Source: Nitrospinaceae bacterium (GTDB lineage Bacteria > Nitrospinota > Nitrospinia > Nitrospinales > VA-1). Taken from it: DNA of 64,000 nucleotides. The translations under genes and the position numbers were made by a program. How positions within the stretch are numbered: position 1 is the stretch's first letter; every line of letters begins with the position of its first letter. The notes under the pieces were generated by a model. It saw only the letters and a list, made by a program, of their open reading frames with translations. It made no database searches and was not told where the DNA came from. The stretch covers positions 1,850 through 65,849 of the forward strand of contig JBHHVU010000012.1 in NCBI GenBank assembly GCA_046754465.1, given 5' to 3'. This document shows, in pieces, positions 9,373 to 33,723 of the stretch.

Positions 9373-9450
9373 AAGACCGGCGTTTCCTGGGGCCGGAATT
9401 TTACTCCAGTGAATAGCATTCTTGATTTCAATGCTCCCCGCCCCACCTTC

Positions 9451-11517: not shown

Positions 11518-11519
11518 TC

Positions 11520-13574: not shown

Positions 13575-13707
13575 GGCTCGTCATTCATTATATTTGGGGC
13601 GAGGGAATCCTGGGCATTCACTGACCGGAAGACCAAAATTATGGTAAGATTTTGTTTTCAAACATTGATCCCATTTCCACCGCTAAAATTAAATTAGAAA
13701 AGAATTT

Positions 13708-14697: not shown

Positions 14698-14722
14698 CCC
14701 TTTCCTCTTAAAAAGATTGAGA

Positions 14723-17230: not shown

Positions 17231-17341
17231 CATGTTTCCATTTTCATCCTCAATGACACCGGGAATTTTCCTAACGCTTTGCCCTGGAAAATTCCTGGAA
17301 ATCCTTCAACCGCCAATATCCGTTCCGGGTTTGTTGAACCG

Positions 17342-18877
17342 ATGAAATTGCCTGACGAACGGCTGACCACGAGGATTCTTTGGATATTTTTCGGTTTGGC
17401 GGTGTATCAGTCCGTCTCCTTATTGATTTGGTATTGGCCGGGTTCCCTTCCGGATGGACCCACGAGCGGCGTGTGGGCCTCCCTGGCTTATGATTTTTCC
17501 AAAGGGGTCTTTTACCGGCCCCTCATCAGTGAGGCGGGGTATGGGGGAACGCGGTACATGCCTTTATTTTTCGTCCTGCATGGATTCCTCATCCAGATCT
17601 TTGGGGATCCCCTGACCACAGGTGTGGCCCTCACCTTGACGGCGGCCCTGTTACTGGGACTGGGTATTTATTTTGTCTTGCGGGAACTCGGGGTCCCCTG
17701 GCGGCTGGCGCTTCCCTTCGCCGGAGCCGTGAATTGTACTATTTCCTACCTCCTGGACACATTGACCATCCGTGGAGATTTCCTCGCTGCGGCCTTTAAT
17801 ATTTGGGCGATTGGGTTTGCGTTAAAACACCATGCCTCTCGATCCAAATTCTATCTTGTTTTGTCCGTGACGGCCTTCACCTGTGCCTTCCTGACTAAAT
17901 TCACCTCCCTGTTCGGCCTTCTGGCCGTGTCGCTGTTCTACTTTTTCTCCGGTCACAGAGGGTCGGCATGGAAACTCCTTCTGGGCACCGGATTGGGCAT
18001 CGTGGTTTCCTTGACAGCCATTAACAGCATCAGCGAGGGACGGGCTCTGGAATCGTTTTTGGCCTGCGCCACGGGGGGATTGGAAAATATGGAACCCTAT
18101 CGATTTATCCTGCATTTTTTGAGTGAAGGGATTCGCGATCCGATATTTTTCGGACTCTTCGGATTTTGTCTTGTTCTGTTCGTCATGAACGCGAAGGAAC
18201 GTTGGAAGGAATTCCCTTGTTTACTGTTCGGCGCGACCCTGGCCTTTACCTTGGTCATCTATTCCTCTCCCGGCACCGCGAGCAACCACCTTCTAGACCT
18301 GCAGGTGGCCATCATCATTTTTCTCGCGGTGCAATTCTCCAGAAACAGGACCCACGCCACGGGAATCTCGATTTTATTCTTTTTAATAGCCGGGTACATC
18401 GTGTTGTCGTGGTTTCCCCATGTTCCATCGGTTAAAAAGTTTTTTGCCGCCAACCAAAAACCCACGCGGGCCACGGTGGAATACTTTTACGACCGGTATG
18501 GACCGCAAGCCGCTCCCGTGCTCTCGCGCCACAATTTTTTTTCACTCCTCAAGGGACACCGGCCCGTGGTAAGTGATTTTTTTAACTTATTTATCTTGAT
18601 GAAAAAATATCCTATCATTGAGCAGGATTTTACCCGGAAAATTAAGACCCAATATTTCGGATCTTTTGTTGCATCGAACTGGCCCGTCATCTTTGAAAAG
18701 GATGTGAACTCCCCGGACGACCCCTATTTTTTGCAGAAAGTGGATGAGTTTCACCGGGCTCAAAGGGAAGAGTTTCATGAGTTTTATGATCTTATTCTTC
18801 AATATTATGAAATCTCAAGTGTCCGAAGGCCTTTCGTATTTTATGTTCCCAGGAACAAGCCCCCCATTGCCCCCTGA
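17342..18877 (+). CDS. Putative GT-C fold membrane glycosyltransferase, paralog 1
   Basis: About 11 TM segments; first-loop SGVWASLAYDFSKGVFYRPL...GYGGTRYMPLFF; RGDFLAAAFN; FLTKFT. Start set at ATG 17342 (track 17279). Confidence 0.62.
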   Translation: MKLPDERLTTRILWIFFGLAVYQSVSLLIWYWPGSLPDGPTSGVWASLAYDFSKGVFYRPLISEAGYGGTRYMPLFFVLHGFLIQIFGDPLTTGVALTLTAALLLGLGIYFVLRELGVPWRLALPFAGAVNCTISYLLDTLTIRGDFLAAAFNIWAIGFALKHHASRSKFYLVLSVTAFTCAFLTKFTSLFGLLAVSLFYFFSGHRGSAWKLLLGTGLGIVVSLTAINSISEGRALESFLACATGGLENMEPYRFILHFLSEGIRDPIFFGLFGFCLVLFVMNAKERWKEFPCLLFGATLAFTLVIYSSPGTASNHLLDLQVAIIIFLAVQFSRNRTHATGISILFFLIAGYIVLSWFPHVPSVKKFFAANQKPTRATVEYFYDRYGPQAAPVLSRHNFFSLLKGHRPVVSDFFNLFILMKKYPIIEQDFTRKIKTQYFGSFVASNWPVIFEKDVNSPDDPYFLQKVDEFHRAQREEFHEFYDLILQYYEISSVRRPFVFYVPRNKPPIAP

Positions 18878-18976
18878 GGGGTGGGAAACTCCGGCCGGTG
18901 CCCGGGGGACCGGCCGGCATCGGCACGCACTCCTTCCGCCGGTCCGCGTATTCTTCCAACACACCGGCGCCTGGTA

Positions 18977-20512
18977 ATGCCCATTTCCAGACAGCGCACC
19001 AGTTTGGGCTTTCTTTGGGGCGCGGGCGTGGCCGCCTTTTCAGGGTCCTTTTTTCTTCTGATTTGGTTTCTGCCCGGGGCGATCCCCGCGGAACACACCA
19101 GTGGAGTCTGGGCGGCGCTGGCCCATGATTTTTCAAACGGAATTTTGTACAGGCCCCTTTTCGACGGCCAGGGGTATGGCGGAACACGTTACATGCCACT
19201 GTTTTTCGTCATTTACGGCGTTTTCATAACTCTTTTTAATGATCCCGTTTGGACAGGTTTTTTTTTATCGCTTTTTTCGGCTTTGCTTTTGGATGCCGGA
19301 TGCTTTTTTCTGCTCCGCGAATCCGGCCTCAAAGCCACCCTGGCCCTCCCCTTCACCCTTTTGGCTCACGCCTCCATAGCCTACCAACTGCTGACCCTGA
19401 CGGTTAAGGGGGATTTCCTGGCGGCGGCGTTGAATGTTTGGGGCATCTATTTCGCGCTCCGGCATTTGAGGAAGAGTTCCTGGTTTTATTTAACCTTGAG
19501 TTCATTCGCCTTTTTAGGGGCCTTCATGACCAAACTCACTACCGTGGGCGGATTCGCCGCGGTGGCGCTTTATTTTATTATCCGGAAAAGAAATCAATCC
19601 CTCCTTTTCCTGACCGCCGCCACGGGTTCCCTGGCCGCGATCCTGCTTCTGGTCATCGATCTTTACAGTCATGGGAACGCGATCGCATCCTTCCAAGCCT
19701 GTGCCCTGGGGGCGATTAATTTTGGTTACGCCATCCGGACGCCTCTCTGGTTCATCAGAATCATAGTTCAGGACCCGTTTTTCCTGATAATCTTCATTCT
19801 CACGATTTTTCTCTTTATAAAATCGGTTTCCTCGCATTGGCGCACGTTTCCTTATCTTTATTTTGGAATCACCCTGATTTCGACCCTGATTATTTTCTCC
19901 TCTCCGGGGACGGACCACAATCATCTCATCGATTTGCTTTTTTCTTGCATTTGGATTTTAGGCCTCCAATTTACCGGAGCCGAGGGGTTTTCGAGATTCT
20001 ATAATTTCACGTTCGGAATCCTGATCTCAGCGCTGGTGATATCCTGGCTTCCCGGCACACCCTCCATCAAAGACATCATGGGACCCTTGGGGAAACCCAC
20101 CCGGGAAACCTTCCAATACATTGCCCAGCGATTGGGTCCGAACGCGAAACACATGCTGAGTGAAAACCCGTTGCTCCCCATCATGTTGGGCCAACGGCCT
20201 ATCGTCATGGACCCTTTCAGCTTAAGGGTTTTGGCCCAAAAATTTCCCGCGATCCAAAAGGATTTCACCCGTAAAATAAAAAACCAATTTTTTGGGGCGG
20301 TGGTTCTATTGGATTATTCCGGAGCCCCTTTGGACCGACTCCAGGAAGCCATGCAAAAACACACCTCCCTGGGAGTCGATCGCTTTTACGGCGAAGTTCA
20401 TTTTCCCCCGGGATTCCTGGAGTTATTGAAATCGCATTATGTCCTGAGCTTCGTGAAAAGACCTTACGTGGTGTTTGAGCCCAGGAAAACCGGCGGCCCC
20501 AAGGGCTCCTGA
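18977..20512 (+). CDS. Putative GT-C fold membrane glycosyltransferase, paralog 2
   Basis: Shares SGVWAALAHDFSNGILYRPL, GYGGTRYMPLFF, KGDFLAAALN, SSPGTDHNHLIDL with paralog 1. Start set at ATG 18977 (track 18881). Confidence 0.62.
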   Translation: MPISRQRTSLGFLWGAGVAAFSGSFFLLIWFLPGAIPAEHTSGVWAALAHDFSNGILYRPLFDGQGYGGTRYMPLFFVIYGVFITLFNDPVWTGFFLSLFSALLLDAGCFFLLRESGLKATLALPFTLLAHASIAYQLLTLTVKGDFLAAALNVWGIYFALRHLRKSSWFYLTLSSFAFLGAFMTKLTTVGGFAAVALYFIIRKRNQSLLFLTAATGSLAAILLLVIDLYSHGNAIASFQACALGAINFGYAIRTPLWFIRIIVQDPFFLIIFILTIFLFIKSVSSHWRTFPYLYFGITLISTLIIFSSPGTDHNHLIDLLFSCIWILGLQFTGAEGFSRFYNFTFGILISALVISWLPGTPSIKDIMGPLGKPTRETFQYIAQRLGPNAKHMLSENPLLPIMLGQRPIVMDPFSLRVLAQKFPAIQKDFTRKIKNQFFGAVVLLDYSGAPLDRLQEAMQKHTSLGVDRFYGEVHFPPGFLELLKSHYVLSFVKRPYVVFEPRKTGGPKGS

Positions 20513-20556
20513 ACGGAAATATTTCCTTTAATAATAGACAGTTAGACGAGTTTTTT

Positions 20557-21486
20557 TTGAGTGACATTTGCCCGGATGATAGTATAATGGCTCGTCACAT
20601 CCCGGCGCAAAACCTGATTGCAAATCCTATCTCAAAAAGTAAAAGGATGCCGCAAATACCTCACCGGAAAATCGAACGTGCGGTGGTCATTCTTCCGACT
20701 TACAACGAAGCGGCCACACTGACGGGGTTGTTGAATGAATTGACCTCCCTCCCGCTTCCCCTCGACGTTTTGGTGGTTGATGATTCCTCCCCCGACGGAA
20801 CCGCGGACCTGGTCAAAAAACATCCCGCTTATGAAAAAAGAGTCTTCTTGCTGGAACGTCCCCGAAAATTGGGACTGGCCACGGCTTATAAGGAAGGATT
20901 CCAAAAGGGATTGACGCTGGGATATGATGTTTGCCTGGAAATGGACAGCGATCTGTCCCATGACCCTCAAGACATTCCACGGTTATTGGCCGCTATCGAA
21001 GAAGGCGCGGCCATGGCCGTCGGCTCCCGGTATTTACAGGGGATCAGCGTGATCAACTGGCCGCTCCGCCGCTTGATAGTCAGTATCGGGGCCGGTATAT
21101 ACACGAGGGCCATCTCCGGACTGCCCCTCACTGATCCTACCAGCGGATTCAAAGCCATCCGCCGCGAGGTGATCGATCGCCTCGACTGGGACCAAATCAA
21201 AAGCGATGGCTACGGTTTCCAAATCGAGGTGAACTATTTTGCCTTCCAGAAGGGATTCGCCATCAAGGAAATTCCAATCATATTCACGGAAAGAAGAAAC
21301 GGCCAATCTAAATTCTCTTTTTCAATTATTCTGGAAGCCGCTTTCAGAATGCTTCAACTCGGATTGATGAGATTTCTCCCCAGTTCGGGAACCATGAATT
21401 CCCACCCCCCGGTTCCAAAGGAAGCATTGACATACGGTCCCCCATATTCGAACCGGATATGTGAAAAGGAAAGGGAAGTCCATTAA
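20557..21486 (+). CDS. Polyprenol-phosphate-mannose synthase (GT2, Dpm1/Ppm1-like)
   Basis: ILPTYNE, VDDSSPDGT, MDSDLSHDP, AVGSRY, DPTSGFKA, GYGFQIE, IPIIFTERRNGQSK. Start may be downstream of 20557. Confidence 0.88.
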   Translation: MSDICPDDSIMARHIPAQNLIANPISKSKRMPQIPHRKIERAVVILPTYNEAATLTGLLNELTSLPLPLDVLVVDDSSPDGTADLVKKHPAYEKRVFLLERPRKLGLATAYKEGFQKGLTLGYDVCLEMDSDLSHDPQDIPRLLAAIEEGAAMAVGSRYLQGISVINWPLRRLIVSIGAGIYTRAISGLPLTDPTSGFKAIRREVIDRLDWDQIKSDGYGFQIEVNYFAFQKGFAIKEIPIIFTERRNGQSKFSFSIILEAAFRMLQLGLMRFLPSSGTMNSHPPVPKEALTYGPPYSNRICEKEREVH

Positions 21487-21765
21487 AAACGTCTTTCGCC
21501 GCGGAGGGGATGTCCCTAAAATTCTTTCCAGAAGGTTTCGGAGCCGGGCGAGGGTTTCCTTTTCCTTCATCCAGGGGTGCGTCACGGCCCTTTCCTTTTT
21601 TCTTCCCACCCGATTAACAACCATCATTGAAAAAGGGCCGCAGCCGGATTGGTGGATGTTGCCTGCCTTTTTTGGGATTAAAATCCCGGGCGCCGGAACC
21701 GGGCCACATGTATAAAAAGAGGATCCCCTCTATATGAATCCCTGAATTTTTGATAAAGAAGAACC

Positions 21766-23253
21766 ATGATGAGGTTTGGCCGGATTGGAAATGGGTTGAA
21801 ATCTCCAGGAATCGCCCTGGCGCTGGTCCTTCACGCCCTGTTTTTTTTATGGCTGTTCCAATTGCAGTATACCGGGGAAGAATGGGCCCGCGTGGAAGCC
21901 AGGGCCACGGATAAATCGACCGGTGCCTATGCCCGCGCCATATTGCAGGAACTGGGGCCCATGGGGCTGGTTACCTGGTTCTTTAGCACCCATGGTGAAA
22001 CGAAACTGTATTACCGGTACGCCCGGCTGACTCTTTATGGAGACGTGGATTATTGGATCAATGAAGAAACCCAGCTCATCGTGGCGTCCCGCCCCTGGCC
22101 TTACCGCGACGTGACGATCGAATATCCTCCAGGGGCCCTCCTCGCGATCACTCTCCCCGCTTTGATTTCGTCGGATTACGATGGCTACCGTTTTTGGCTG
22201 GGGACCTGGTTCGGACTGCTCTACATGCTGAACCTTTTTTTGGGACTGCAACTCGCCGCCGGGGGAAACCCTTCCCCTTCCCAGGTCAACCGAATGCTTT
22301 GGGGTTCCGTGATGTTTTTACTTTGTTTTGGAGGCATCGTGGTCAGCCGCTTCGACCATGTTGTACCCGCCTTTGTCCTTTTGGCCGCCTGGGCATTCGC
22401 GCGCGCCCTTGGTAAGGAAGGAAAATTGGCTTTAATCGGGTTCGGGGCATTCGGTCTGGCCGCGGCCCTGGGAGTATTGACCAAGATCGTTCCCGGCCTG
22501 GTGATCCCGGCGGCAATCCTTGTCCTCTGCCTCCGGGGAAGAAATTCCAATCGCCTTCAATCCATCGCGGCCTCCCTTGGAGGGTTGGCCACGGGACTCG
22601 TCCTGTTGAACGCCCTCTTTTTTTGGTTATTCGGTCCCGGTTACTTCAAAACTTTCACTTACCATATGCAAAGAGGAATTCAAATCGAATCGGTCTATTC
22701 CGGGATCCTTTTGCTAGTTCATCTAACTGGAGGGGGTTTGCTGGTGGACCATTCCTTCGGGTCCACCAATATCGTCTCTTCCTTCTTAACGTGGGAATTA
22801 AAAAGGCTCTCGCCCTGGATGTTTTTGGGGACCGCCCTTTGGATTTCCCGGCAGGTTTGGAAATGCCGGAATGCATCCCGGGAACCCGAGGATCAAAACG
22901 TTCCCCCGGCTTATTCCCTGATCCTGATCACCCTTATTTTTTTATTGGCCATTATCCTCACCAGCAAGGTATTTTCTCCCCAGTATCTGATCTGGCTGGG
23001 GCCCCTCATGGCGGTACTGGCCGCCGTCCGGAAAGACATGGTAAAAATCGGCGTTATATTCCTCCTGGCCACGGCCTTGACCCAGGTATTGTTTCCACAT
23101 CTATATGATTTTCTGGAAAATTTTCATCCAGCCATGGTAGCCGTTCTAAACCTGCGAAACGTCCTGCTCGTTCTGGTTTTGATTTTATTGGTCCGGGACC
23201 TGCCGGTCCTTTTAAGGAAGAATCAGGAGGATGAATCGTCTTCGGAGAGTTGA
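21766..23253 (+). CDS. GT87/DUF2029-like GT-C glycosyltransferase (PimE-like mannosyltransferase family)
   Basis: PYRDVTIEYPPGAL, SRFD, RGIQIES, KVFSPQYLIWL motifs; 11-12 TM segments. Confidence 0.8.
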   Translation: MMRFGRIGNGLKSPGIALALVLHALFFLWLFQLQYTGEEWARVEARATDKSTGAYARAILQELGPMGLVTWFFSTHGETKLYYRYARLTLYGDVDYWINEETQLIVASRPWPYRDVTIEYPPGALLAITLPALISSDYDGYRFWLGTWFGLLYMLNLFLGLQLAAGGNPSPSQVNRMLWGSVMFLLCFGGIVVSRFDHVVPAFVLLAAWAFARALGKEGKLALIGFGAFGLAAALGVLTKIVPGLVIPAAILVLCLRGRNSNRLQSIAASLGGLATGLVLLNALFFWLFGPGYFKTFTYHMQRGIQIESVYSGILLLVHLTGGGLLVDHSFGSTNIVSSFLTWELKRLSPWMFLGTALWISRQVWKCRNASREPEDQNVPPAYSLILITLIFLLAIILTSKVFSPQYLIWLGPLMAVLAAVRKDMVKIGVIFLLATALTQVLFPHLYDFLENFHPAMVAVLNLRNVLLVLVLILLVRDLPVLLRKNQEDESSSES

Positions 23254-24053
23254 TTTTTCACGTAAATTATCCTTTGGATAGCGGTGGCATTACTCATCAC
23301 CGCTATGATCAAAAGGACCAGGACCATCAAACCCGGCCCCATTACCGGAATGGCTCCCAGCAAGGACCCAATCACCAAAAGGGTGATCCGCTCAGGCCGT
23401 TGCATCCAACCCACTTTACAGGCGATACCGAGCCCTTCCGCCCGCGCCCGGGTGTAGCTGACCAGAAAGGAACCCGCAAGCGCAAAAATGATGAGAACGA
23501 CCGTCCAGGGACCATAAAAAATTCCCAATTCACCGAGTCCCTCCTCATATAAACCCTTCCCTCCCGAAAAATGCCAGGCCAGGCCCAAAAAGATAAACAG
23601 TTCGCCGAACCGGTCCAGAGTGCTGTCCAGGAAGGCTCCAAACCGGGAATTTTTTCCCGTTTCTTTGGCCACCTGTCCATCCAGCGCATCGCAGGTTCCG
23701 GCAAGAACCGTCAAGCAGCCGCCCCAGAAGAACGTTCCCAAGCCGAACACCACCCCTGCCAAGGCACTGAATATGAGACCCGCCACCGAAAGGGTATTGG
23801 GGTCCACCCGCGACCGGGCCAGGAATCTCCCCAGGGGTGCGATAAGGTTCAGATATCTTTGTTTGTTCGATTCACTTAATAAAACCAGTTGCGCCATCTG
23901 TGGGTTTATCTTTTCAAACGGAACCGAAATTTCAATCCCCGTGGCCTTTCCGGAATCCAGGCCGTTTCCGCGGGAATCCGGTCTCAAAGGTTTTGAGGGA
24001 GTTTGAGTAAAATGGTGGATACCGGAATGAAATTTCTTCAAGTGACTAAACAT
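23223..24053 (-). CDS. CDP-alcohol phosphotransferase, phosphatidylinositol-phosphate synthase (PgsA1/AIP synthase) type
   Basis: PNTLS, DALDGQVAKETGKNSRFGAFLDSTLDR, SYTRARAEGLG, GWMQRPER, TAIQR. The SY-RARAE and R-ER motifs are typical of inositol-phosphate-accepting members. Start may be downstream. Confidence 0.82.
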   Translation of the reverse strand: MFSHLKKFHSGIHHFTQTPSKPLRPDSRGNGLDSGKATGIEISVPFEKINPQMAQLVLLSESNKQRYLNLIAPLGRFLARSRVDPNTLSVAGLIFSALAGVVFGLGTFFWGGCLTVLAGTCDALDGQVAKETGKNSRFGAFLDSTLDRFGELFIFLGLAWHFSGGKGLYEEGLGELGIFYGPWTVVLIIFALAGSFLVSYTRARAEGLGIACKVGWMQRPERITLLVIGSLLGAIPVMGPGLMVLVLLIIAVMSNATAIQRIIYVKNQLSEDDSSS

Positions 24054-24189
24054 GGGCGGCCTTCCCCCATCACGGAATGAAAACCAAAACTTCCCGGTAT
24101 CCGGAAAAGGCCCTGGGATAACGATTTCTTTTTGCAGGCGGCACCGAAGGAATGAAAAAACCGGCCGGGGCTAATCTTTTTATACTTCC

Positions 24190-27100
24190 TTATACTTCCT
24201 CGGTCTGCCTTTCGCTGGCCACTTCCAACTTTCCGGTTCCTTTGCCGTTTCCTGAGGATTCCACGTTCTCTTCGGAATCTTCCTCAGCGGATTCATTCAG
24301 GGACATCTCCTCCAGCATCCAGGGGACCATCTGTTCGATGCTGGGGCCGCCAAGGAACCGGACCACTGGCAGAGTGATCTCCAGGTCTCTTTCGATCCGG
24401 ACGATGAGTTCCATGGCCATGAGGGAATCCATTCCCAATTCGGTGAGAGGTTGATCCCATTCTAACTTGGATGGGGGTAACCCCAAAACCCTGGCGATGC
24501 ACTTTTGCAGGTAATCCCCCAGAACCTGTGGACGATCCTCCAGTGGCTCGGCTAATAGCTTGGGACGGATCGGGTCCCCCACTTCCACTCCCAATTCATC
24601 ATCGGATTCCACATGAAACTCCTCTTCCCAAACCTGGGAAAACCTGGGCGGCATGTGTTGGGACGGAAACAACGGACCCAGTCTTCTCCAGTTGACGGGA
24701 AACACCGCCGCTTGCACCGGATTCCCCTGGATCAGCTTGCCGAGCATGTCCACGGCTTGCCGGGGGGTCAGGCTCATCATTCCCTGCCCTTCCAGCCTTT
24801 CATTCATTTTCTGGCGCGCGGCGATTCCCACTTCCAGCAAGGGAGCCCAATGGATGACCTGGCCCGGAAGGCCTTTCGCCCGGCGGTAATGGACCAGGGA
24901 TTCCAGGAAAGTATTCGCCGCAACATAATTGGCCTGGCCGGGATTTCCGATGATATTGGCGACGGAAGAAAACATAATGAAGAAATCCAACGAGCGCTTC
25001 AGGCTTTGCTGATGCAGGTTCCAGGCGCCATGAACTTTCGGGGCCATAACCCGGTGGAGCCGCTCCCGGCTGAGGTGGATCAAGAGACCATCGTCAAGGA
25101 CCATGGCGCCGTGCAGAATGCCTTTCAAGGGGGGCATCTTTGTATCGATGTGACGCAGGGCGCGGGTGGCATCCTCCTGCCGAGCCACGTCTCCCTGGAT
25201 CACCTGAACCTCGGCACCCAGCCCCCGCAGAATCGCCACGCCCGCTTTCGCGTCGTCCGAGGAAGCTCCTTTCCGGCCCATGAGCGCGAGGTGCCGCGCG
25301 CCCTGTTTGACCATCCATTTCGCGGCGGCCAATCCGAATCCACCCAGGCCCCCCGTGATGAGATAGGTGACGTTATCCTTGAAAGCTGCCGGCGGGGGGG
25401 TGTCCGGAATGATTTTCAAGGCGGGCTCTTCCATCGAGACAACGATTTTTCCAATATGCCTGGCCTGAGCCATGGTGCGGAAGGCACTCACGATATTGGA
25501 AATGGGGAAAACCCGGAACGGAAGGGAATGCAACTCCCCCTGGCGGACCCGCTCCATGATCTCCATGATGATGGAACGGAATTCCGGTCCAAAATCGCGG
25601 AAACCTTGTTTGAAATCCACCATCGTGATAAACGAGATACCCTTCAGAAACGGCCGCAAAGCCACCTTGTTATTTTGGTAAATGTCCCGCTTGCCGATTT
25701 CCAGGAACCGGCCAAGGGGTTTGAGGAGGCTCACGCTCTTGGTGACAAACGGTCCGGCGAGGGAATTCAATACGATGTCCACGCCTTCCCCATGAGTGAT
25801 TTCCAGGATTTCATCCGCGAAGGCCAGGGACCGGGAATCGAATACATGCTTCACCCCGAGGGCCCGCAGGAAATCTCTTTTTTGTTCACTGCCTGCAGTG
25901 GCGAACACTTCCGCCCCGGCCCTCATGGCTATTTCCACCGCCGCCAGGCCCACGCCTCCCGAAGCCGCGTGAATCAAAACCCGTTCGCCCTTACGGAGAT
26001 TTCCGGCCCGGTGCAGCATGTAATATGCGGTCAGGAAAGCAGCGGGAAGGGTTGCGGATTCCTCGAAACTCAAATTTTCGGGTTTGTGGACGGTCGATAA
26101 CGCAGGAACCAAAGCGTAAGCGCCAAAGCACCCACCGTTGGAAAGCGCGAGAACTTCGTCCCCCACCTGGAAATCATCGACCCCCTCACCCAGCGCGGTG
26201 ATGATGCCGGAACATTCCAGGCCCAATGTTTCCCAGAGGTGTTCTTTCCCATCCATCTCCTCGGGAAGCAGGCCCATGGCGATCATGACGTCACGGAAAT
26301 TGAGGGCCGCGGCGCGAACCTGAATCTCGACTTCGCCCGGACCCGGTTGGCGGCGGACGGTTTCCCGCAGCTTGAAATTTTCCAGGATTCCCGGCGCGGG
26401 AATCTCCAAAACAAAGGGAGGCATTCCGCTTGCCTTGTCCCGGGCCTCCCGTTTGACAATATTTTCCTTGGGACCCGGCCGGACCAGGCGGCGGACGAAT
26501 CGTTGATTCCCCCGCAGGGCAATCTCCACTTCCGCATCTTCCCGCCACAATTCATGGACAAGTCCCTCCACCCCATCCGGCGGATTCATGGGATCCAGGT
26601 CCACCATCTTGCATCGCAGGTTGGCATGTTCCCCCTGGATCACCTGACCGAGACCCCAAACGGGTGATTGCGCCACGGAAGACAGCGTATCCGCCGGGGA
26701 CACGTGTTGTCCGCCCCGGGTTACCAGGAAAAGGCGTGAAGCCCGCGGCCAATGGATTTGGGCCAGTTCCTGGACGAGGTAGACGATGTTGAGACAACCC
26801 TCCCGCTCGCCGGTTTCCAGATCGTTTAAGGAAAGTTCGGAAGTTTCCGGCATGTCCAGACTCCAAAGATGAACGATGCCGCGCAAGGGGGAAGATTCCT
26901 TCCGGACCGAATCGATCAAACACCCCATGTCTTCCGGACAGTCCGGACGAATGATTACCCGGTTGTCCCGCAATTTTTTAAACGTCTTGCCCTTTCCGAC
27001 CAGCACACAATTTTCACCGATGCGCTTGAGGGATTCCCCCAGTTTCTTGCCTTGTCCACTGTCATCTTCAAAAATCAGCCAGCTTCCCCGGGAATCGGGC

Positions 27101-30100
27101 CGGGGCAGGGGGTGGGTATCCAGGGCGGATTCCTTCTCCAACCTGGGACCCCGGGCAAACAGGAGTGTCTGAAGGCAATCTGCATGGCTGGTTTCGCCCA
27201 AACCGCTGATCGAAGTGAATCCCGCGTCCTTCAAGACCGTTCCCCATTCCTTGAAAGACAAGGCGCGGCGGCAGGTTTCCCCCGGTTCCACGGAACCCAG
27301 CCGCAGCGCTCCGGATATCAATTCCGTCCAACCGGCGGACCGGGTGGTTTCCAAAGGGACAAAAAGTCCCTCGGAGGACAACAGTTGGCGGATATTTCCA
27401 AGCGCCCGCGAGGTATTCCTGACCGAGGGAAAAAGGTTGGAACACAAAATCAGGTCAAAGGAATGCGCGTCCCATCCCTGGGACAGGGGATCGGCCTCAA
27501 TATCCAACTGCTGGTATTTCGCGAAGGGAAATTCCCTGAACTTCCGGGCCGCTTTTTCCAGGACCCGTTCCGACGAATCCGAAAACACGTATTCCGATAT
27601 TTCCGGATTCAACCGCTGCATAACATAGAAAGCGGATCCTCCTTTTCCGGCGCCCAACTCCAGGACCTTTAATTTTCTTCCTTCCGGAAGCCGGTCCATC
27701 GCCAGACCGATCAATTCCTGAATCAATGCGCGATAGACCCGGTAGTTGAACGCATCCTGGTAAAAATGTTCCCAGAGCGGATCGTCTTCCCGAAGAACCT
27801 CTAGAAAACTCCCCGCCCCATCATTAAGGAACCGGGCCAGATAATCCCCGGCATTGCGCAGCAAATTCAGTTCCGCCATGTAATCCGGAAACCGGCGGAT
27901 CAGTGATTGCCAGATTTCCCCCGGGTTTTCTCGCGGAGGAGTGGATTGGATTTCCCACCGGTCCCCTTCCCTGCTCAATATTCCCTGGTTCTCCAGGACA
28001 TGGAAGCCGAGCGCGAGACCGGAAGAGCGTTTGGGATTCAATCCCCATCGGTCGGCCAGGGCATCGATGGAAAACGAGGTTCCGGGTTCAAACCGGAACC
28101 CCAGCGACTCCAGGGCGCCTGCCACGCAGGCGGAGCACAGGCGTTCCAATTGAGGTTCCAGGGAATCGTAGTAAAGGTTCCGCCTGAACCTTTTGGCCCA
28201 AAGGGAGGCCCGGGGTTTCAGCGCATCGGTTAATTCACCGGGAGAGGGAAAAAATTCCGCGCCTCTGAAAGTCTTTTCTGATCCCGCGGGAACGGAGGGT
28301 TCCCAGTTCCATTCATACAACCAGTTTTCGGGATTGTCGGAATCGTTGGTCCGGGAATGATCGAGGGCCCGGCACCGAAACCCTTGGCAATCGATCCACA
28401 CCTTTCCGGAGCCGTCGAAAAAATTCAAATCCGCTTCGAAATGGTTATTGCTCAACTTCACGGCGCGGGCATGGACCCAAAGCGGATGCACCGGCGAACC
28501 GTGGAATGTGATTTTCCCCACCCCTACGGGGAGAAAAAGTTTGTTATCAAAAGTTTCTGATTGGGAACCCAGAAGCGCGCATAGCTGAAATCCCGCATCC
28601 AGCAGAGAAGGATGGATCCGGTACGGCCGGACATCAATCCCCAGGGCATCCGGGTTTTTTATCAGTCCCAACGCTTCTTTATCCCCCCTCCACGCCCGTT
28701 CAATTCCCCGGAAAGCAGGACCGTACTGCAATCCAATTTTCTGAAAGGCATCGTAGAGTCCCTCGGCGGAAGTTTCCTGGCCGCACCGTTTCCGAATCTC
28801 CTCCCGATCCACCGTTTCCGGGGTACCGGGGGAGCCCTGACGCTGGAGCGTTGCGGAGGCGTGCAGGGTCCAGGACTGATTCGTCCGGTCGGCAAGATTG
28901 TAAATGGTCAGGGAACCATCGGAAGGATCAAAGGCCGTCTGCATTTTTACTCCCCGGTTTCTGGGAAGAAACATCGCATTGTGGAATTCGACCGATTCCA
29001 GAACGCAGCCGGACTCGTTGGAAATTTTCAGGCCGGCGGCCAGGGCCATCTCCACAAAACCGGCGCCGGGAAACAAGTTCGCTTTTTTGACGACATGGTC
29101 CCCCAGATAAGTATATTCTCTTTTGTCCAATCGGGTCTGCCAGACGGGATGGGCGCCTTCAATTCCCCGGCCCAAGAAGGGGTGGACATTCTTTTCCATG
29201 GGGTCAATCCCTTTTTCCTCTCTGTCGTGCCAGAACCGCTCCTTTTGCCAGGGATAACTGGGGAGGGAAACGCAACGTCCCCCACGGGAATGAACCTGTT
29301 TCCAATCGACGGTCATTCCCCGGCAATAAAGAGCCGCCAGGGAACCTAAAAGGACCCTGCGGTCTTCCTCGTTCCGGTTCAGCGAGGCCAACACCACCCC
29401 ACTTCGGCTCTGGCGGGAAAAACATTCAGAAATCCCTGGTCCCAGAACCGGATGCGGCGCCAATTCCAGGAAGGTGTTGTACTCATCCAGAACCAGCTTT
29501 TCGGCGGCTTTATAGAACAAAACGGGTTTCCGAACATTTTCCCACCAGTACTCCTCGTCCATCCGCTCCCCCATTTCTATTTCACCCCTCACGGTGGAAT
29601 AGAAGGGGAGGACGGCGGGCCTGCCCCGCAAATTCCTCAAGGATTCCAGCAATTCCTTCCGTGCCGGTTCCATCTGGTGGCTATGGAAGGCGTATTCCAC
29701 ATTCAGGTACCGGCAAAATATTTCCCGGTGCAAGAGGGGACCGATCACTTTCTCCAGGGCAACGGAATCGCCGGACAGGGTGACCGATTTGGGTCCATTG
29801 ACGGCGGCGATGGAGACATCCTCCCAATATCCCTTCAGAGCCTCCGTCGCCTCCGCGGCGGAAAGCCCCACCACGACCATCTTTCCCTTTCTGTACATGG
29901 GATGCAACAGCCTGCCGCGATGGTAGATGATCTGCACTGCGTCTTCCAGGCGGTAAATTCCAGCCACATAGGCGGCCGCCGCTTCCCCCATGCTATGGCC
30001 AATAACCGCTTGCGGAATGACTCCCCAGGACCGCCATAATTCCGCCAAACCCACCTGCAGCGAAAAAATCGCCGCCTGGGTGATGTGGGTTTCGTTGATC

Positions 30101-31878
30101 CGCGAATGGCTTTCCGAAGCCGTCAACTCTTTCAACAAGGACCAATTCGCATGGCGGCCGAAAAGTTCATCGCACCGTTGCAGCGTTTCCCGGAAAACAG
30201 GCTCCTCGTCCAGAAGTTGGCGTCCCATCCCCCACCACTGAGGCCCCTGCCCTGAAAAGACAAATACCAGTTTGGGCGACGCCCCCCGGGTTTTCCGTCC
30301 GGAGGCCCACCCCGTTTGCCGCTCCCCATTCACCACCGCTTGAAGATTCGCTTTCATCTCCTCCACCGACCGCCCCACCAGCGCCAGGCGGTGATCATGG
30401 TGACTCCGCCGGACGCTGGCGGTATAACAAACATCGTTCAAAGCGGTGAGGGACCAGTTTTTTTCCTCGTCAAAGAATTCAAGATATTTTTCGGTGAACT
30501 CCTTAAGCGCCTTGGGACAGCGTGCCGACAAGGGCAAACAAAACCACCGCGGGCGGGTCAAACTTGCACTGGAGGGAAGTGGATCGGCCTCCGGCGGGGC
30601 TTCTTGAAGGATCACGTTGGCGTTGGTCCCCCCAAAACCAAAGGAATTCACTCCGGAGATCGCGGGACCGGGTGTTTCGGGCCAGGGGATAAGGGTTTGC
30701 GGCACCCGCAAACGATACTCCTCGAATTTGATGCTGGGATTGGGGTGATTGAAATGCAGGTTGGGAGGAATCTGGCGGTGTCTCAAGGCCAGGACGCTTT
30801 TGATGAAGCTGGCGATGCCTGAAGCAGATTCCAAATGCCCGATATTGGATTTCACCGAACCGATAAAACAATATTCCCCGGGCGGACGGCTTTCCACCAG
30901 CACTTCCCCCTGCGCATTGGCTTCAATGGGGTCGCCCACCGGCGTTCCCGTTCCATGGGCTTCCACGAACTGGATCTGATGGGGCGCGATACCGGCCTGA
31001 CGGCAAGCTTTTCTCAACAACGTCTTCTGGGATTCCAAATCGGGCACCGGCATTCCCGGGGTGCGGCCATCCTGGTTGACCACGGTGGAAAGCACGAGGG
31101 CGCCAATGGGGTCTTTATCCTCCAAAGCCTTGGCAAGCGGTTTTAAAACGACGATTCCAGCGCCTTCGCCGCGGACATACCCGTTTCCCCCGGCATCGAA
31201 GGACTTACAGCGGCCATCCTGGGAGAGCATCCCCCCCTTGCCAAGAGCTATGGTGGTATCCGGAGATAAAATGATATTGACCCCGCCCGCCAGGGCCAAT
31301 TCGGACTCGCCATTCCAAATACTGCGGCAGGCCAGATGCACCGCCACCAGAGAGGAGGAACAGGCGGTGTCCACCGCCAGGCTCGGCCCCTTGAAATCGA
31401 AAAAATAAGAAAGACGATTGGCGGCTACGCTGAGGGCCACCCCCATTCCCACATGGCTGTCAACCATATGCAGATCGTTTTTCATAATATCCCTGAATTC
31501 GACTCCGGAAATACCTATAAAAACCCCCGTCCTGCTTCCCGCAAGCCTTTCCGGTACCTGACCGGCATCTTCCAGGGCCTGCCAGGCGCACTCGAGCAGA
31601 ACCCTTTGCTGAGGGTCTACATGGGCGGCCTCGCGCGGCGAAATTTCAAAAAAACGAGGATCGAACATGGCGACGGAATTGATGAAACCGCCCCAGCGGG
31701 AAACCGTCTTTCCCGGCGCCCTGGGATTGTGGCTGTAATAGGCCATGGCATTCCAGCGGCTTTCCGGAATTTCCGTAATGGCATCCCTGCCTTGCCGAAG
31801 CAAATCCCAATAGGCTTCCGGGCTATCCACCCCGCCGGGGAAACGGCAACTCAATCCAATAACGGCAATGGGGTCCAT
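24190..31878 (-). CDS. Single-module highly reducing type I PKS (KS-AT-DH-MT-like-ER-KR-ACP), no thioesterase
   Basis: KS DTACSSS/EAHGTGT/NIGHLE; AT GHSMG/YAFHS; DH DHVVKKANLFPGAG/HPSLLDAGFQ; MT ELGAGKGG; ER LIHAASGGVGLAA; KR ITGGLGGFG/VLDD/GQANYVAAN; ACP LGMDSL; short acidic tail. Confidence 0.96.
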   Translation of the reverse strand: MDPIAVIGLSCRFPGGVDSPEAYWDLLRQGRDAITEIPESRWNAMAYYSHNPRAPGKTVSRWGGFINSVAMFDPRFFEISPREAAHVDPQQRVLLECAWQALEDAGQVPERLAGSRTGVFIGISGVEFRDIMKNDLHMVDSHVGMGVALSVAANRLSYFFDFKGPSLAVDTACSSSLVAVHLACRSIWNGESELALAGGVNIILSPDTTIALGKGGMLSQDGRCKSFDAGGNGYVRGEGAGIVVLKPLAKALEDKDPIGALVLSTVVNQDGRTPGMPVPDLESQKTLLRKACRQAGIAPHQIQFVEAHGTGTPVGDPIEANAQGEVLVESRPPGEYCFIGSVKSNIGHLESASGIASFIKSVLALRHRQIPPNLHFNHPNPSIKFEEYRLRVPQTLIPWPETPGPAISGVNSFGFGGTNANVILQEAPPEADPLPSSASLTRPRWFCLPLSARCPKALKEFTEKYLEFFDEEKNWSLTALNDVCYTASVRRSHHDHRLALVGRSVEEMKANLQAVVNGERQTGWASGRKTRGASPKLVFVFSGQGPQWWGMGRQLLDEEPVFRETLQRCDELFGRHANWSLLKELTASESHSRINETHITQAAIFSLQVGLAELWRSWGVIPQAVIGHSMGEAAAAYVAGIYRLEDAVQIIYHRGRLLHPMYRKGKMVVVGLSAAEATEALKGYWEDVSIAAVNGPKSVTLSGDSVALEKVIGPLLHREIFCRYLNVEYAFHSHQMEPARKELLESLRNLRGRPAVLPFYSTVRGEIEMGERMDEEYWWENVRKPVLFYKAAEKLVLDEYNTFLELAPHPVLGPGISECFSRQSRSGVVLASLNRNEEDRRVLLGSLAALYCRGMTVDWKQVHSRGGRCVSLPSYPWQKERFWHDREEKGIDPMEKNVHPFLGRGIEGAHPVWQTRLDKREYTYLGDHVVKKANLFPGAGFVEMALAAGLKISNESGCVLESVEFHNAMFLPRNRGVKMQTAFDPSDGSLTIYNLADRTNQSWTLHASATLQRQGSPGTPETVDREEIRKRCGQETSAEGLYDAFQKIGLQYGPAFRGIERAWRGDKEALGLIKNPDALGIDVRPYRIHPSLLDAGFQLCALLGSQSETFDNKLFLPVGVGKITFHGSPVHPLWVHARAVKLSNNHFEADLNFFDGSGKVWIDCQGFRCRALDHSRTNDSDNPENWLYEWNWEPSVPAGSEKTFRGAEFFPSPGELTDALKPRASLWAKRFRRNLYYDSLEPQLERLCSACVAGALESLGFRFEPGTSFSIDALADRWGLNPKRSSGLALGFHVLENQGILSREGDRWEIQSTPPRENPGEIWQSLIRRFPDYMAELNLLRNAGDYLARFLNDGAGSFLEVLREDDPLWEHFYQDAFNYRVYRALIQELIGLAMDRLPEGRKLKVLELGAGKGGSAFYVMQRLNPEISEYVFSDSSERVLEKAARKFREFPFAKYQQLDIEADPLSQGWDAHSFDLILCSNLFPSVRNTSRALGNIRQLLSSEGLFVPLETTRSAGWTELISGALRLGSVEPGETCRRALSFKEWGTVLKDAGFTSISGLGETSHADCLQTLLFARGPRLEKESALDTHPLPRPDSRGSWLIFEDDSGQGKKLGESLKRIGENCVLVGKGKTFKKLRDNRVIIRPDCPEDMGCLIDSVRKESSPLRGIVHLWSLDMPETSELSLNDLETGEREGCLNIVYLVQELAQIHWPRASRLFLVTRGGQHVSPADTLSSVAQSPVWGLGQVIQGEHANLRCKMVDLDPMNPPDGVEGLVHELWREDAEVEIALRGNQRFVRRLVRPGPKENIVKREARDKASGMPPFVLEIPAPGILENFKLRETVRRQPGPGEVEIQVRAAALNFRDVMIAMGLLPEEMDGKEHLWETLGLECSGIITALGEGVDDFQVGDEVLALSNGGCFGAYALVPALSTVHKPENLSFEESATLPAAFLTAYYMLHRAGNLRKGERVLIHAASGGVGLAAVEIAMRAGAEVFATAGSEQKRDFLRALGVKHVFDSRSLAFADEILEITHGEGVDIVLNSLAGPFVTKSVSLLKPLGRFLEIGKRDIYQNNKVALRPFLKGISFITMVDFKQGFRDFGPEFRSIIMEIMERVRQGELHSLPFRVFPISNIVSAFRTMAQARHIGKIVVSMEEPALKIIPDTPPPAAFKDNVTYLITGGLGGFGLAAAKWMVKQGARHLALMGRKGASSDDAKAGVAILRGLGAEVQVIQGDVARQEDATRALRHIDTKMPPLKGILHGAMVLDDGLLIHLSRERLHRVMAPKVHGAWNLHQQSLKRSLDFFIMFSSVANIIGNPGQANYVAANTFLESLVHYRRAKGLPGQVIHWAPLLEVGIAARQKMNERLEGQGMMSLTPRQAVDMLGKLIQGNPVQAAVFPVNWRRLGPLFPSQHMPPRFSQVWEEEFHVESDDELGVEVGDPIRPKLLAEPLEDRPQVLGDYLQKCIARVLGLPPSKLEWDQPLTELGMDSLMAMELIVRIERDLEITLPVVRFLGGPSIEQMVPWMLEEMSLNESAEEDSEENVESSGNGKGTGKLEVASERQTEEV

Positions 31879-32586
31879 CAGCGATCAACCCTTTCAAAAT
31901 GAATCATAGTTTCCTTCGCCGCCGTGTCAGGGAACATCAAACGGCGCCAATTTGATTTCAGGAGAACCCATCCAAAAAAATATTTTACTTTAGCCGAAAA
32001 TTTGTATAACAGTAATAAACTTTCCACCGGGGGCGGGGGGTTGCCCATCAGACAGGGACACGACCTGACCCCAAACATTCCCCATACCGAACCTCCTGGA
32101 CGGTCGGGGAAACGCGGAGCTGGTCCTGACAAATGACTTCATTTTTCCAATATCCTCTTTCGGCCGGGATGGGTGGGAAGGGGGCCGCTATCCCTAATCA
32201 TGAAAAAGCGGGCTAATTTCCCGGGCGTCGATTTTCGAAACGGCTTATTCCCCGTGCCACGATATCGAATGGCGTGGGGAGTCATTTTAAAGTGTATAAC
32301 CGTTGAAAATCAAATGATTTATTTGAATAAATATGGTTTACACCCCGTAAGAATTAAAGATCAAAGCGCTTATTGATATAGCGGTGATCCATTCCGCTCA
32401 AAATCCCCTGAACTCAAGGGGAAAAAACCGACTATTTTCCAAGGCGCCTTTTTATCCCGCGGCCCATCGGCGCTTAAAAGATAAATTTTTCAATCCAATT
32501 CTTTTCAAAAAACCGGATATCCGGCCGCACCCCAAGGGTCATGGCGGGTAATCCCGGGTGGCAATCTCGGATTCAAGGATGAAGCA

Positions 32587-33723
32587 ATGGTAATCGTCAA
32601 ACAGGTCAATGGAGATAAAAAAGGGATGAGGGATTTTATCGATTTTCCTTATTCCCATTACCGCCAGGATGAAAAATGGTGCCCTCCATTAAAAATAGAA
32701 AGGAAATTTTTTTTCAGTAAAAAGAATCCTTTCATGCGTCATAGCCGCATCGCGTTTTTCGTCGCCTATCAGGAAAACCGGCCAGTGGGACGCGTTACGG
32801 CTCATATGGATGAGATTTTCAACGATTATCACAAAACCCGTCAGGGGTTTTTCGGATTTTTTGAATCGGTCGAGAGCGCGGAGACCGCCGAAAAATTGAT
32901 GCGTTCCTGTGAAAACTGGATTGGATCCCAGGGCATGAATTCCTTGATCGGTCCCTTCAATTTTTCCACGAATCATGAGGTCGGTTTCCTGATCAAGGGA
33001 TTCGACAGACCCCCTATGCTGATGATGCCCTATACGAAAAAATACTATCCGGAATTGCTCTATCCCTTGGGGTACAAAAAGGAAAAAGAACTCCTTGCTT
33101 TCCGGCTGGACAAGGACACCCCCATTCCCGACTTATTTCGGCTCATGGCGGATCGGATAAAAAAGGAAGTGGGGGACTCGGTCCGGTTAAGAAACCTGGA
33201 CATGAAAAACCTGAAATCCGAACTCCGAATCATCCTGGATATTTACAATGATGCCTGGAGCAAGAACTGGGGATTCGTCCCCATGACGGATGGAGAAATC
33301 GACTCCATGGCCTGGCAACTCAAACTTTTCGCCATGACCGAATTCATCTATATTCTTTTCAAGGAGGGCGAACCCGCCGCCTTTTTGCTCATGCTTCCCG
33401 ATCTGAATGAAGGGTTGATTCATATCAAATCGGGAAAACTGTTTCCCACAGGCATTCTCAAACTCATTTTTTTCCGTAAATATATCCGGTCTGGAAGGGT
33501 GTTGCTCATGGGGGTCAAAAAGAAATTCAGGAACCAGGGCCTGGATATTCTCCTTTACAGCCGAATGATAAAAGACGGTTTCAGCAAAACATCCGATCAA
33601 CAAAGAAACGTGGAACTTTCCTGGATTCTCGAGGACAACAAAGTCATGGTGAATATTTTGAAAAGCCTGAACGCGGACCCTTATAAGAAATATCTGATTT
33701 TAAAGAAAACCCTGACCCCTTAA
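32587..33723 (+). CDS. GNAT-fold N-acyltransferase of the YghO / bacterial ceramide synthase (bCerS)-like family
   Basis: FIDFPYSHYRQDEKWCPPL, KNPF, VGRVTA, GFFGFFE, GPFNFSTNHEVGFLIKGFDRPPMLMMPY, YNDAWSKNWGFVPMT, PDLNE, ELSWILEDN match my recollection of this family. Confidence 0.75.
   Translation: MVIVKQVNGDKKGMRDFIDFPYSHYRQDEKWCPPLKIERKFFFSKKNPFMRHSRIAFFVAYQENRPVGRVTAHMDEIFNDYHKTRQGFFGFFESVESAETAEKLMRSCENWIGSQGMNSLIGPFNFSTNHEVGFLIKGFDRPPMLMMPYTKKYYPELLYPLGYKKEKELLAFRLDKDTPIPDLFRLMADRIKKEVGDSVRLRNLDMKNLKSELRIILDIYNDAWSKNWGFVPMTDGEIDSMAWQLKLFAMTEFIYILFKEGEPAAFLLMLPDLNEGLIHIKSGKLFPTGILKLIFFRKYIRSGRVLLMGVKKKFRNQGLDILLYSRMIKDGFSKTSDQQRNVELSWILEDNKVMVNILKSLNADPYKKYLILKKTLTP

Follow-up and report, generated by a model that had tools for sequence, protein, structure and literature searches.

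A polyketide synthase lacking a release domain beside a YghO/bCerS-family N-acyltransferase in a predicted inositol-lipid cluster of Nitrospinaceae: a possible route of chain release into ceramide

Bacteria are already known to make ceramides with Spt, bCerS, and CerR and, in Bacteroidetes, inositol-phosphoceramides; bacterial sphingolipids derived from a polyketide synthase (PKS) have also been described. Here we analyze a stretch of 64,000 nucleotides of contig JBHHVU010000012.1 (assembly GCA_046754465.1, Nitrospinaceae bacterium; the whole stretch is termed the window herein, and coordinates given without a contig or locus label are window positions), in which a PKS gene without a recognizable release domain stands head to head with a gene for a GNAT-type N-acyltransferase of the YghO/bCerS family. 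Among the closest described systems, the Caulobacter N-acyltransferase CC_1154 is required for dihydroceramide formation, and yghO (ECD_02850) is given as its homolog (PMC9386255); CC_1154 has been named bCerS (PMC11087976). Phyla with Spt-like genes are covered in the Supplementary Data of a further paper (PMC11334938). The Bacteroides route to inositol-phosphoceramides leads from myo-inositol phosphate synthase (MIPS) through the phosphatidylinositol phosphate (PIP) synthase BT_1523 and the PIP phosphatase BT_1525 to the AUR1-like phosphoinositol dihydroceramide (PI-DHC) synthase BT_1522 (PMC9246714). In the PKS-dependent system of Pseudomonas fluorescens, the iterative PKS PfSgaA and the alpha-oxoamine synthase (AONS)/serine palmitoyltransferase (SPT) PfSgaB yield sphinganines; the same paper mentions FUM13 and SphF and gives 6,101 SgaAB-like clusters in its Supplementary Data (PMC12134224).

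Nitrospinota are the main oceanic nitrite oxidisers, and their membrane lipids are little known. Mannosylated inositol-phosphoceramides are known from fungi and plants. The fungal highly reducing PKSs (HR-PKSs) for fumonisin and sphingofungin have the domain order ketosynthase (KS), acyltransferase (AT), dehydratase (DH), methyltransferase (MT), enoylreductase (ER), ketoreductase (KR), and acyl carrier protein (ACP), with active C-methyltransferases and no thioesterase (TE), and are released by an AONS. Mycocerosic acid synthase (Mas) and other Mas-like PKSs are iterative, fully reducing, and TE-less; the product of Mas is freed by PapA5, an O-acyltransferase of the Condensation fold, and a fatty acyl-AMP ligase (FAAL) is needed. 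The mycobacterial phosphatidylinositol mannoside (PIM) pathway comprises the PIP synthase PgsA1, Ppm1, and PimE (glycosyltransferase family GT87), and N-acyltransferases of the GNAT fold that use acyl-ACP exist, namely, the acyl-homoserine lactone synthases and the FeeM-type N-acyl amino acid synthases.

The PKS gene (24190..31878, minus strand) encodes a single-module type I protein of 2562 amino acids (aa) in which Pfam places the KS at residues 1-430, the AT at 538-847, the DH at 899-1174, an MT-like domain at 1393-1556, a structural KR-like part at 1600-1720, the ER at 1846-2148, the KR at 2171-2347, and the ACP at 2455-2518. The KS stands at the very start of the protein, and an acidic tail of ~45 residues follows the ACP. 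Pfam and NCBIfam revealed no TE, reductase (R), condensation (C), AONS, or aminotransferase domain in it, bearing out an earlier reading made from the DNA letters only (the sequence-only reading herein), which had the PKS end at the ACP and an acidic tail; its 12 orthologs (2551-2579 aa) are equally without a PF00975 domain. Invariant in 13 PKS orthologs are motifs that we take to be the catalytic ones: Cys173, His308, and His348 of the KS, GHSxGE with Arg654 of the AT, His899 and Asp1094 of the DH, HAASGGVG of the ER, GGLGGFG with Tyr2318 of the KR, and DSL of the ACP. The AT also carries YAFH, presumably the signature of a malonyl type.

The MT-like domain is degenerate. Its GxGxG motif (LELGAGKGG) is kept in the window copy only among the 13 Nitrospinaceae orthologs, a lid segment is missing in these orthologs, and the His of the motif D[VA]LHAT, assumed by us to be the catalytic residue of PKS C-methyltransferases, is present in six cyanobacterial-type relatives and absent from 13 of 13 Nitrospinaceae proteins. 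An actively C-methylating HR-PKS with a branched product was rejected on the latter ground. Since the MT-like domain has neither the motif His nor the lid segment, the PKS is probably best read as similar to a fatty acid synthase (FAS), building a straight saturated chain. The sequence-only reading had called it a highly reducing PKS; this stands as far as the intact domains and motifs go and has to be amended for the degenerate MT-like domain, absent from that reading, which makes the enzyme FAS-like.

Full-length orthologs with 55-59% identity occur in eight other Nitrospinota genomes (G042-G049). With residues 900-2562 as the query, 12 orthologs at 51-54% identity are followed by relatives at 38-43%, which are single-module PKSs of the same domain order from cyanobacteria, Acidobacteria, and others, some with a TE or R domain and many with neither; a search of genome contigs with residues 880-2562 alone returned no related loci. 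The GC content of the PKS gene (56.9%), the GNAT gene (44.7%), and the genome (53.4%), with similar GC3 values, does not settle whether the PKS is of foreign origin. The sole phosphopantetheinyl transferase (PPTase) match in the window genome (G000, 97% complete; the window lies on its contig C12) is AcpS-sized (C2:42896-43240, open frame of 157 aa).

Domain scans of 43 open reading frames (ORFs) of the window detected no AMP-binding, Condensation, thioesterase, or class I/II aminotransferase domain, which agrees with the earlier statement that no FAAL or PapA-type acyltransferase lies nearby. The five AMP-binding matches of the genome are all off contig C12, none of its 12 Aminotran_1_2 matches is on C12, and the genome gave no Condensation match and no PF00975 thioesterase match. 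Release of the Mas/PapA type was rejected, as the genome has no Condensation match and the PKS contig no AMP-binding gene; a built-in or type II PF00975 thioesterase was rejected, as there is none in the PKS or the genome. Between 16157 and 36080, the only candidate hydrolase or acyltransferase is the GNAT, and because the PKS has no release domain, this adjacent enzyme is proposed as the releaser.

The GNAT gene (32587..33723, plus strand; 378 aa) encodes a member of the YghO/bCerS family, as the sequence-only reading had supposed: it is 36% identical to YghO of Escherichia coli BL21 over residues 10-375, i.e., its full length (E 5.7e-70). Its tie to Caulobacter CC_1154 goes via the equivalence with YghO (PMC9386255). 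Pfam gave a weak GNAT match only (E 0.0033), NCBIfam gave no match, and searching the PDB by sequence brought up no relative with a solved structure; homologs of equal length number more than 6000. The AlphaFold2 (AF2) model has a predicted local distance difference test (pLDDT) value of 91 and a predicted template modeling (TM) score (pTM) of 0.89, and its best Foldseek matches in the PDB are tandem-repeat GNATs (7q3a, 5kf1, 2wpw, and MshD; TM 0.55-0.72, E down to 3e-15, sequence identity 8-13%). In E. coli BL21, yghO is divergent to genes for a FAAL, an epimerase/dehydratase, an ACP, and Spt.

The window genome encodes two members of this family, which are 36% identical to each other. The copy in the window, on contig C12, is not itself linked to spt or cerR; the second is encoded on contig C25 beside both genes. 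In a survey of 120 Nitrospinota genomes (PKS match threshold E<=1e-50), a family member was found in 74, with proteins 62-71% identical to the window GNAT (clade A) in 11 genomes (G000, G007, and G042-G050) and spt-linked proteins 33-43% identical to it (clade B) in 67. A tree built from 106 members of the family recovers clade A as monophyletic (SH-aLRT 99) and groups it (support 99) with spt-adjacent proteins of Spirochaetales, Sumerlaeota, and an unclassified metagenome-assembled genome (MAG) (L062, L063, and L064), whose genes lie directly downstream of that for Spt; Nitrospinota clade B forms a clade of its own (21 rows, support 99). Clade A is thus no recent duplicate of clade B.

The spt locus of five genomes (G044, G046, G047, G048, and G050) consists of genes for a TPR protein, Spt, and CerR, with those for the GNAT, the CDP-alcohol transferase, and the MMPL protein missing; all three are retained at the spt locus of G043, with the GNAT belonging to clade B. 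Clade A is the sole family member found in these five genomes, whose Spt is 78-81% identical to that of G000. As the only bCerS homolog to accompany Spt and CerR there, clade A is very probably a working ceramide synthase. In G050, it would fill this role without any PKS, unless the genome lacks such an enzyme.

The sphingolipid operon on C25 (L059:5243-11963, minus strand) encodes an Spt-like protein (442 aa; NCBIfam SerpalmtaseCFB, 458 bits against a cut-off of 640), the clade-B GNAT, whose start overlaps the spt stop, a CerR-like epimerase, a CDP-alcohol phosphatidyltransferase, and an MMPL transporter, and its gene order recurs in G043. In loci of Nitrospirota and unclassified MAGs (L084, L096, L100, and L132), a stand-alone FabF/FabB-like ketosynthase, 27-29% identical to the KS of the PKS over 280-460 aa, adjoins spt-bCerS-cerR.

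The neighborhoods of the family were sampled twice, as the best 80 loci from genome_contigs with the GNAT family alignment as the query and as 80 of the shorter metagenome_contigs loci among the matches listed with the clade-A alignment as the query. An Spt-like protein is encoded in the flank of 53 of the best 80 genome loci (within 400 bp in 40), a CerR-like protein in 51, and both in 46; the corresponding counts for the 80 metagenome loci among the matches listed are 43, 35, and 24. Clade-A loci were absent from the metagenome matches listed, where relatives reached 36-42% identity only. One metagenome locus (L203:2-11110) has a bCerS-type GNAT gene divergent from genes for a FAAL, a desaturase-like protein, and a type I PKS (KS, AT, KR, and DH).

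A PKS ortholog is present in 9 of the 120 Nitrospinota genomes (G000 and G042-G049), and all nine have a clade-A GNAT. The PKS therefore does not occur mostly without the GNAT, the outcome that the sequence-only reading had named as telling against it; the co-occurrence that it proposed to look for holds in one direction, in that the PKS is never found without the GNAT, and fails in the other, with the GNAT present and the PKS absent in 2 of 11 genomes. The two genes are adjacent and divergent in eight of the nine PKS genomes, the window included, with gaps of ~210-770 bp; the ninth (G045), where no head-to-head pair was seen, is fragmented. In all four loci examined for gene order (window, G043, G044, and G047), the GNAT gene is followed by the PKS gene on the opposite strand and then by the PIP-synthase gene.

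The genes from 16157 to 33723 point to a cluster for a glycosylated membrane lipid of the inositol-phosphoceramide (IPC) type, all activities being predicted. It begins with a gene for a PAP2_3 protein resembling PI-DHC (IPC) synthases (16157..17230, plus strand; Pfam PAP2_3), which has NF052609 (PI-DHC synthase) as its sole NCBIfam match (E 4.8e-49, 167 bits against a cut-off of 480) and which is syntenic in G007, G050, and G047. On the same strand follow two GT-C-type membrane glycosyltransferases with weak PMT_2 matches, the first (17279..18877; E 0.0035) with orthologs at the same place in G007 and G050 and the second (18881..20512; E 0.0017) with orthologs in G007, G050, G044, and G047, and a GT2 protein resembling polyprenyl-phosphate-sugar synthases (20557..21486; Glycos_transf_2, E 1.2e-28), with the AglJ, ArnC, dolichyl-P-hexose transferase, and PpgS types as its best NCBIfam matches, all under the cut-off. 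A further membrane glycosyltransferase of 495 aa (21766..23253, plus strand) has no Pfam or NCBIfam match; its assignment as GT87-like (PimE type) is a lead from language-model and fold likeness to GT87 clusters of the ESM Atlas (score 0.99, 225 of 256 features shared, TM 0.79/0.82). On the minus strand, 136 bp downstream of the PKS gene, lies the gene for a CDP-alcohol phosphatidyltransferase (23223..24053; Pfam CDP-OH_P_transf), whose best NCBIfam matches are archaetidylinositol-P synthase (148 bits, cut-off 180), PIP synthase (130, cut-off 170), and the BT_1523 type (129, cut-off 350); the sequence-only reading had seen a PIP synthase here, and these matches, all under their cut-offs, are in line with a PIP-synthase-like protein.

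MIPS is encoded elsewhere in the genome (C66:6596-7993; NAD_binding_5, E 3.8e-91, and Inos-1-P_synth). On that contig (L060:4064-11737), its gene adjoins those for an N-terminally extended CDP-alcohol transferase (best NCBIfam match IPCT/DIPPS, 92 bits), an NTP transferase, and a HAD hydrolase, a set that corresponds to the inositol-lipid cluster described as "alternative" in Prevotella and B. vulgatus (PMC9246714). The same stretch encodes a GFO/IDH/MocA oxidoreductase, a flippase-like LPG_synthase_TM protein, and a class III aminotransferase. A myxobacterium may have IPC capacity as well: in a Myxococcales MAG, a PIP-synthase-like and a PAP2_3-like gene (L138:3431-5667) are no more than ~7 kb away from spt, GNAT, and cerR genes.

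From the gene content, protein families, patterns of presence and absence, and PKS motifs observed, we infer the enzyme activities, the nature of the product, and a transfer from the ACP to the GNAT as follows. The PIP-synthase-like enzyme would convert CDP-diacylglycerol and inositol phosphate, supplied by the MIPS encoded elsewhere, to phosphatidylinositol phosphate; the PAP2_3 enzyme would transfer phosphoinositol onto ceramide; and the GT2, GT87-like, and two GT-C proteins would add sugars from polyprenyl-phosphate donors. The clade-A GNAT would be a second, separately derived bacterial ceramide synthase that N-acylates the long-chain base made by the single Spt of the genome. The PKS would be an accessory module, inserted between the PIP-synthase gene and the GNAT gene in part of the lineage, that iteratively builds a long saturated, probably unbranched acyl chain on its own ACP. 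The GNAT would take this chain off the phosphopantetheine thioester of the ACP and place it onto the amine of the base, such that ceramide formation is at the same time the release step. Off-loading of the PKS chain by the GNAT into ceramide is the best explanation as a whole, held tentatively and short of being probable; the fuller statement, in which marine nitrite-oxidising Nitrospinaceae then convert this ceramide to a mannosylated inositol-phosphoceramide, is doubtful.

Co-folding of the ACP with the GNAT had been suggested in the sequence-only reading. With ACP residues 2435-2535, it returned "weak support", with a score of 0.40 (runs of 0.47, 0.38, and 0.40) against 0.01 for the best of three controls; between runs, 92% or more of the contacts are the same, and the partner has a pLDDT of at least 81. 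Of 157 solved complexes, 116 reach the mark used, as do 2 of 215 mismatched pairs, and scores of 0.60 or lower comprise 18 of those 157 solved complexes and both mismatched pairs; these counts apply roughly, as custom alignments went into the co-fold. A direct chain transfer from ACP to GNAT is plausible, and the pair scored above its controls within a weak class.

Several observations weigh against this explanation. Unless an interaction was already likely, a pass of this weak class is wrong in more cases than it is right, and the controls held no other ACP, so that the co-fold is silent on specificity. Two of the 11 clade-A genomes (G007 and G050) have the same cluster without a PKS match at the threshold, in the order PAP2_3, GT-C, GT-C, GT2, GT87-like, small PAP2, PIP-synthase gene (minus strand), and GNAT (plus strand), the last two being head to head with gaps of about 50 and 560 bp. 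Because of these two genomes, the conserved partner of the GNAT is the inositol-lipid and glycosyltransferase cluster, with the PKS as an add-on. The GNAT tree places G007 at its base and G050 as sister (support 97) to the genus to which the PKS-bearing genomes G044-G049 belong. The simplest history, drawn from this gene tree rather than from a species tree, is one PKS insertion followed by one loss. The genomes with the PKS are close kin, so the adjacency of PKS and GNAT probably stems from one event, and its eight cases are not independent. Across the family, a type I PKS lies near the GNAT in 1 of the best 80 genome loci, from the same Nitrospinales lineage, and in 1 of the 80 metagenome loci among the matches listed (L203), an independent case whose PKS ends in its own Aminotran_1_2 (AONS-type) domain; the published bacterial PKS-sphingolipid system frees its chain via an Spt-type alpha-oxoamine synthase (PMC12134224). 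Both the PIP-synthase-like and the PI-DHC-synthase-like proteins fall under their NCBIfam cut-offs, a PgpA-type PIP phosphatase (PF04608) found no match in the 97%-complete genome, which would call for another phosphatase, and the genome yielded an AcpS-type PPTase only, with none of the Sfp type found.

The small PAP2 gene (238-246 aa; L043:8408-9124 in G007 and L045:7707-8447 in G050) sits between the GT87-like and PIP-synthase genes in the two PKS-less genomes only. The corresponding position in the window, G044, and G047 has no such gene, and elsewhere in G000 there is only a weak match (31% identity over 69 aa). The G007 copy weakly resembles undecaprenyl-diphosphatase. The missing PIP phosphatase may be this protein, in which case its pattern would be reciprocal to that of the PKS.

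The main rival reading, which the sequence-only reading had also named and which we consider rather unlikely, is that the chain becomes the long-chain base itself: the Spt encoded on C25 would condense serine with the ACP-bound chain, and the clade-A GNAT would N-acylate the resulting base with an ordinary donor. The PKS shares its domain order with the fungal fumonisin-type PKSs, which are AONS-released, and an Spt ortholog with 78-82% identity is present in every sufficiently assembled PKS genome (none was found in G049, which is 67% complete). At L203, the GNAT gene is divergent from the FAAL gene, the desaturase-like gene, and a PKS gene that supplies its own terminal Aminotran_1_2 domain; the PfSgaA-PfSgaB pair provides a precedent for PKS-derived sphinganines (PMC12134224), and a Rhodobacterial Spt draws its acyl chain from a dedicated ACP (PMC9386255). 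However, Spt is encoded on another contig, unlinked to the PKS, whereas the alpha-oxoamine synthase is adjacent or fused in both PKS precedents. Spt is also equally conserved with and without the PKS (73-82% identity), with no sign of a changed donor, and the PKS insertion sits next to the GNAT gene of the inositol cluster rather than at spt.

It is unlikely that the chain enters another lipid, for instance the phosphatidylinositol anchor via a PlsX/PlsC-type route, or is set free as an acid by an unrecognised hydrolase, with the place beside the GNAT being a mere landing site, in a divergent promoter region from which the PIP-synthase gene is transcribed as well. The PKS gene is co-directional with and 136 bp upstream of the PIP-synthase-like gene, which puts it in one operon with a gene for a glycerophospholipid enzyme; G007 and G050 do without it and keep the GNAT gene and the other cluster genes, and the adjacency is probably a single event, as set out above. 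Single-module PKSs that share this architecture and lack a TE are common among cyanobacteria and in further phyla (38-43% identity over residues 900-2562), and outside this lineage just 1 of the 160 sampled family loci has a type I PKS nearby. On the other side stand the GNAT as the sole hydrolase or acyltransferase candidate between 16157 and 36080, the failure to find a PF00975 TE in the genome, and the survey of 120 genomes, in which the PKS is never without a clade-A GNAT. That the clade-A GNAT is no ceramide synthase and N-acylates an amino sugar, an inositol-linked glucosamine head group, or an amino acid is very unlikely: its identity to YghO and to the spt-linked paralog is just 36%, its gene is not beside spt, its fold matches include a glucosamine N-acetyltransferase, and the mycothiol synthase MshD, two tandem GNATs with amino-sugar substrates, and a polysaccharide deacetylase and a GT4 are encoded further upstream in the window, but fold matches at 8-13% identity reflect the general tandem-GNAT fold only, the nearest relatives outside Nitrospinota are encoded directly downstream of Spt, and the five genomes with clade A alone beside Spt and CerR would be left without a ceramide synthase.

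If the GNAT does off-load the PKS, amide formation by a ceramide synthase would be an added release route for release-less PKSs and a complement to the one bacterial system published so far that joins a PKS to sphingolipids, where the PKS provides the base instead of the N-acyl chain. The enzyme would then be the first ACP-dependent bacterial ceramide synthase, and its lipids a possible source of distinctive sedimentary biomarkers. What is new is the second bCerS lineage within a glycosyl-inositol lipid cluster, the insertion of a FAS-like, release-less PKS beside a ceramide synthase rather than an alpha-oxoamine synthase, and the host phylum, Nitrospinota; a literature search, supplements excluded, found no published account of the combination of PKS, bCerS, and inositol cluster. 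Ceramide production is predicted for most of Nitrospinota (spt, bcerS, and cerR together; a family member in 74 of 120 genomes) and glycosylated inositol-phosphoceramides for one sub-lineage, part of which would use a chain from a private FAS-like synthase. The gain and loss of the PKS within an otherwise unchanged cluster offers a natural comparison for lipidomics.

The PKS and GNAT genes are separated by a divergent intergenic region of 708 bp (31879..32586). It contains a promoter-like site on the minus strand (31930-31903, 10 of 12 positions matching); promoter and terminator scans of the region gave site counts not above those of shuffled sequence, and Rfam gave no match of note. A second block of membrane-lipid head-group genes (6015-15901), with partial synteny in G043 and G044, encodes a metallophosphoesterase, a second CDP-alcohol transferase, a polysaccharide deacetylase, two LtaS/sulfatase-type proteins, a flippase-like LPG_synthase_TM protein, and a GT4 whose best matches are the BshA and MshA types. 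On the far side of the GNAT, a radical SAM protein (36022-37461, minus strand; best NCBIfam match TrsS, 92 bits against a cut-off of 490, followed by the tetraether lipid synthase Tes, 79 bits against 450) is encoded near a DUF547 protein, an FGE-sulfatase-like protein, and a molybdopterin oxidoreductase, and a KamA-family radical SAM aminomutase-like protein of 745 aa (40934-43171, plus strand) has an N-terminal extension of ~230 residues without a family match.

The locus can be placed among the known systems as follows. With Mas and PapA5, it has in common a TE-less, fully reducing PKS; the window genome has no Condensation match, and the AT motif of the PKS is, as we take it, of the malonyl type. 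Fungal fumonisin-type PKSs have the same domain order and a sphingolipid-related product, whereas the window PKS has no MT motif His and no adjacent AONS. The mycobacterial PIM pathway is matched in the window by a PIP-synthase-like protein, a GT2 resembling polyprenyl-phosphate-sugar synthases, and a GT87-like GT-C protein; the PIM anchor is diacylglycerol, and that proposed here is ceramide. As in B. thetaiotaomicron (BT_1522-BT_1526), look-alikes of PIP synthase and PI-DHC synthase are encoded in one cluster (PMC9246714), but MIPS is here on another contig, a PgpA-type phosphatase was not found, and both proteins are under their NCBIfam cut-offs; the window adds the GT2, GT87-like, and GT-C proteins, a ceramide synthase paralog, and, in some genomes, the PKS. 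The PfSgaAB(C) system of P. fluorescens MYb115 resembles the window, by its description rather than by sequence, in a monomodular iterative type I PKS without a release domain, dedicated to a bacterial sphingolipid with a presumed trans-acting sphingolipid off-loader; there, an adjacent alpha-oxoamine synthase/SPT turns the PKS chain into the long-chain base, followed by a KDSR-type reductase (PMC12134224), whereas no AONS gene is among the window ORFs scanned and a bCerS-type N-acyltransferase adjoins the PKS. The GNAT itself is closest to bCerS (Caulobacter CC_1154/CCNA_01212 "aca" and E. coli B YghO), with which it shares homology over the full length, a soluble protein of ~375 aa, and the tandem-GNAT fold. 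Linkage to spt and cerR runs through the bCerS family, whereas the window copy is unlinked to spt. Like yghO of E. coli BL21, which lies opposite a FAAL-epimerase-ACP-spt operon, the GNAT gene is divergent to an operon predicted to supply an acyl chain; unlike YghO, with its FAAL and small ACP, the GNAT is a second paralog of a separate lineage, with a predicted activity, and adjoins a type I PKS in an inositol-lipid and glycosyltransferase cluster.

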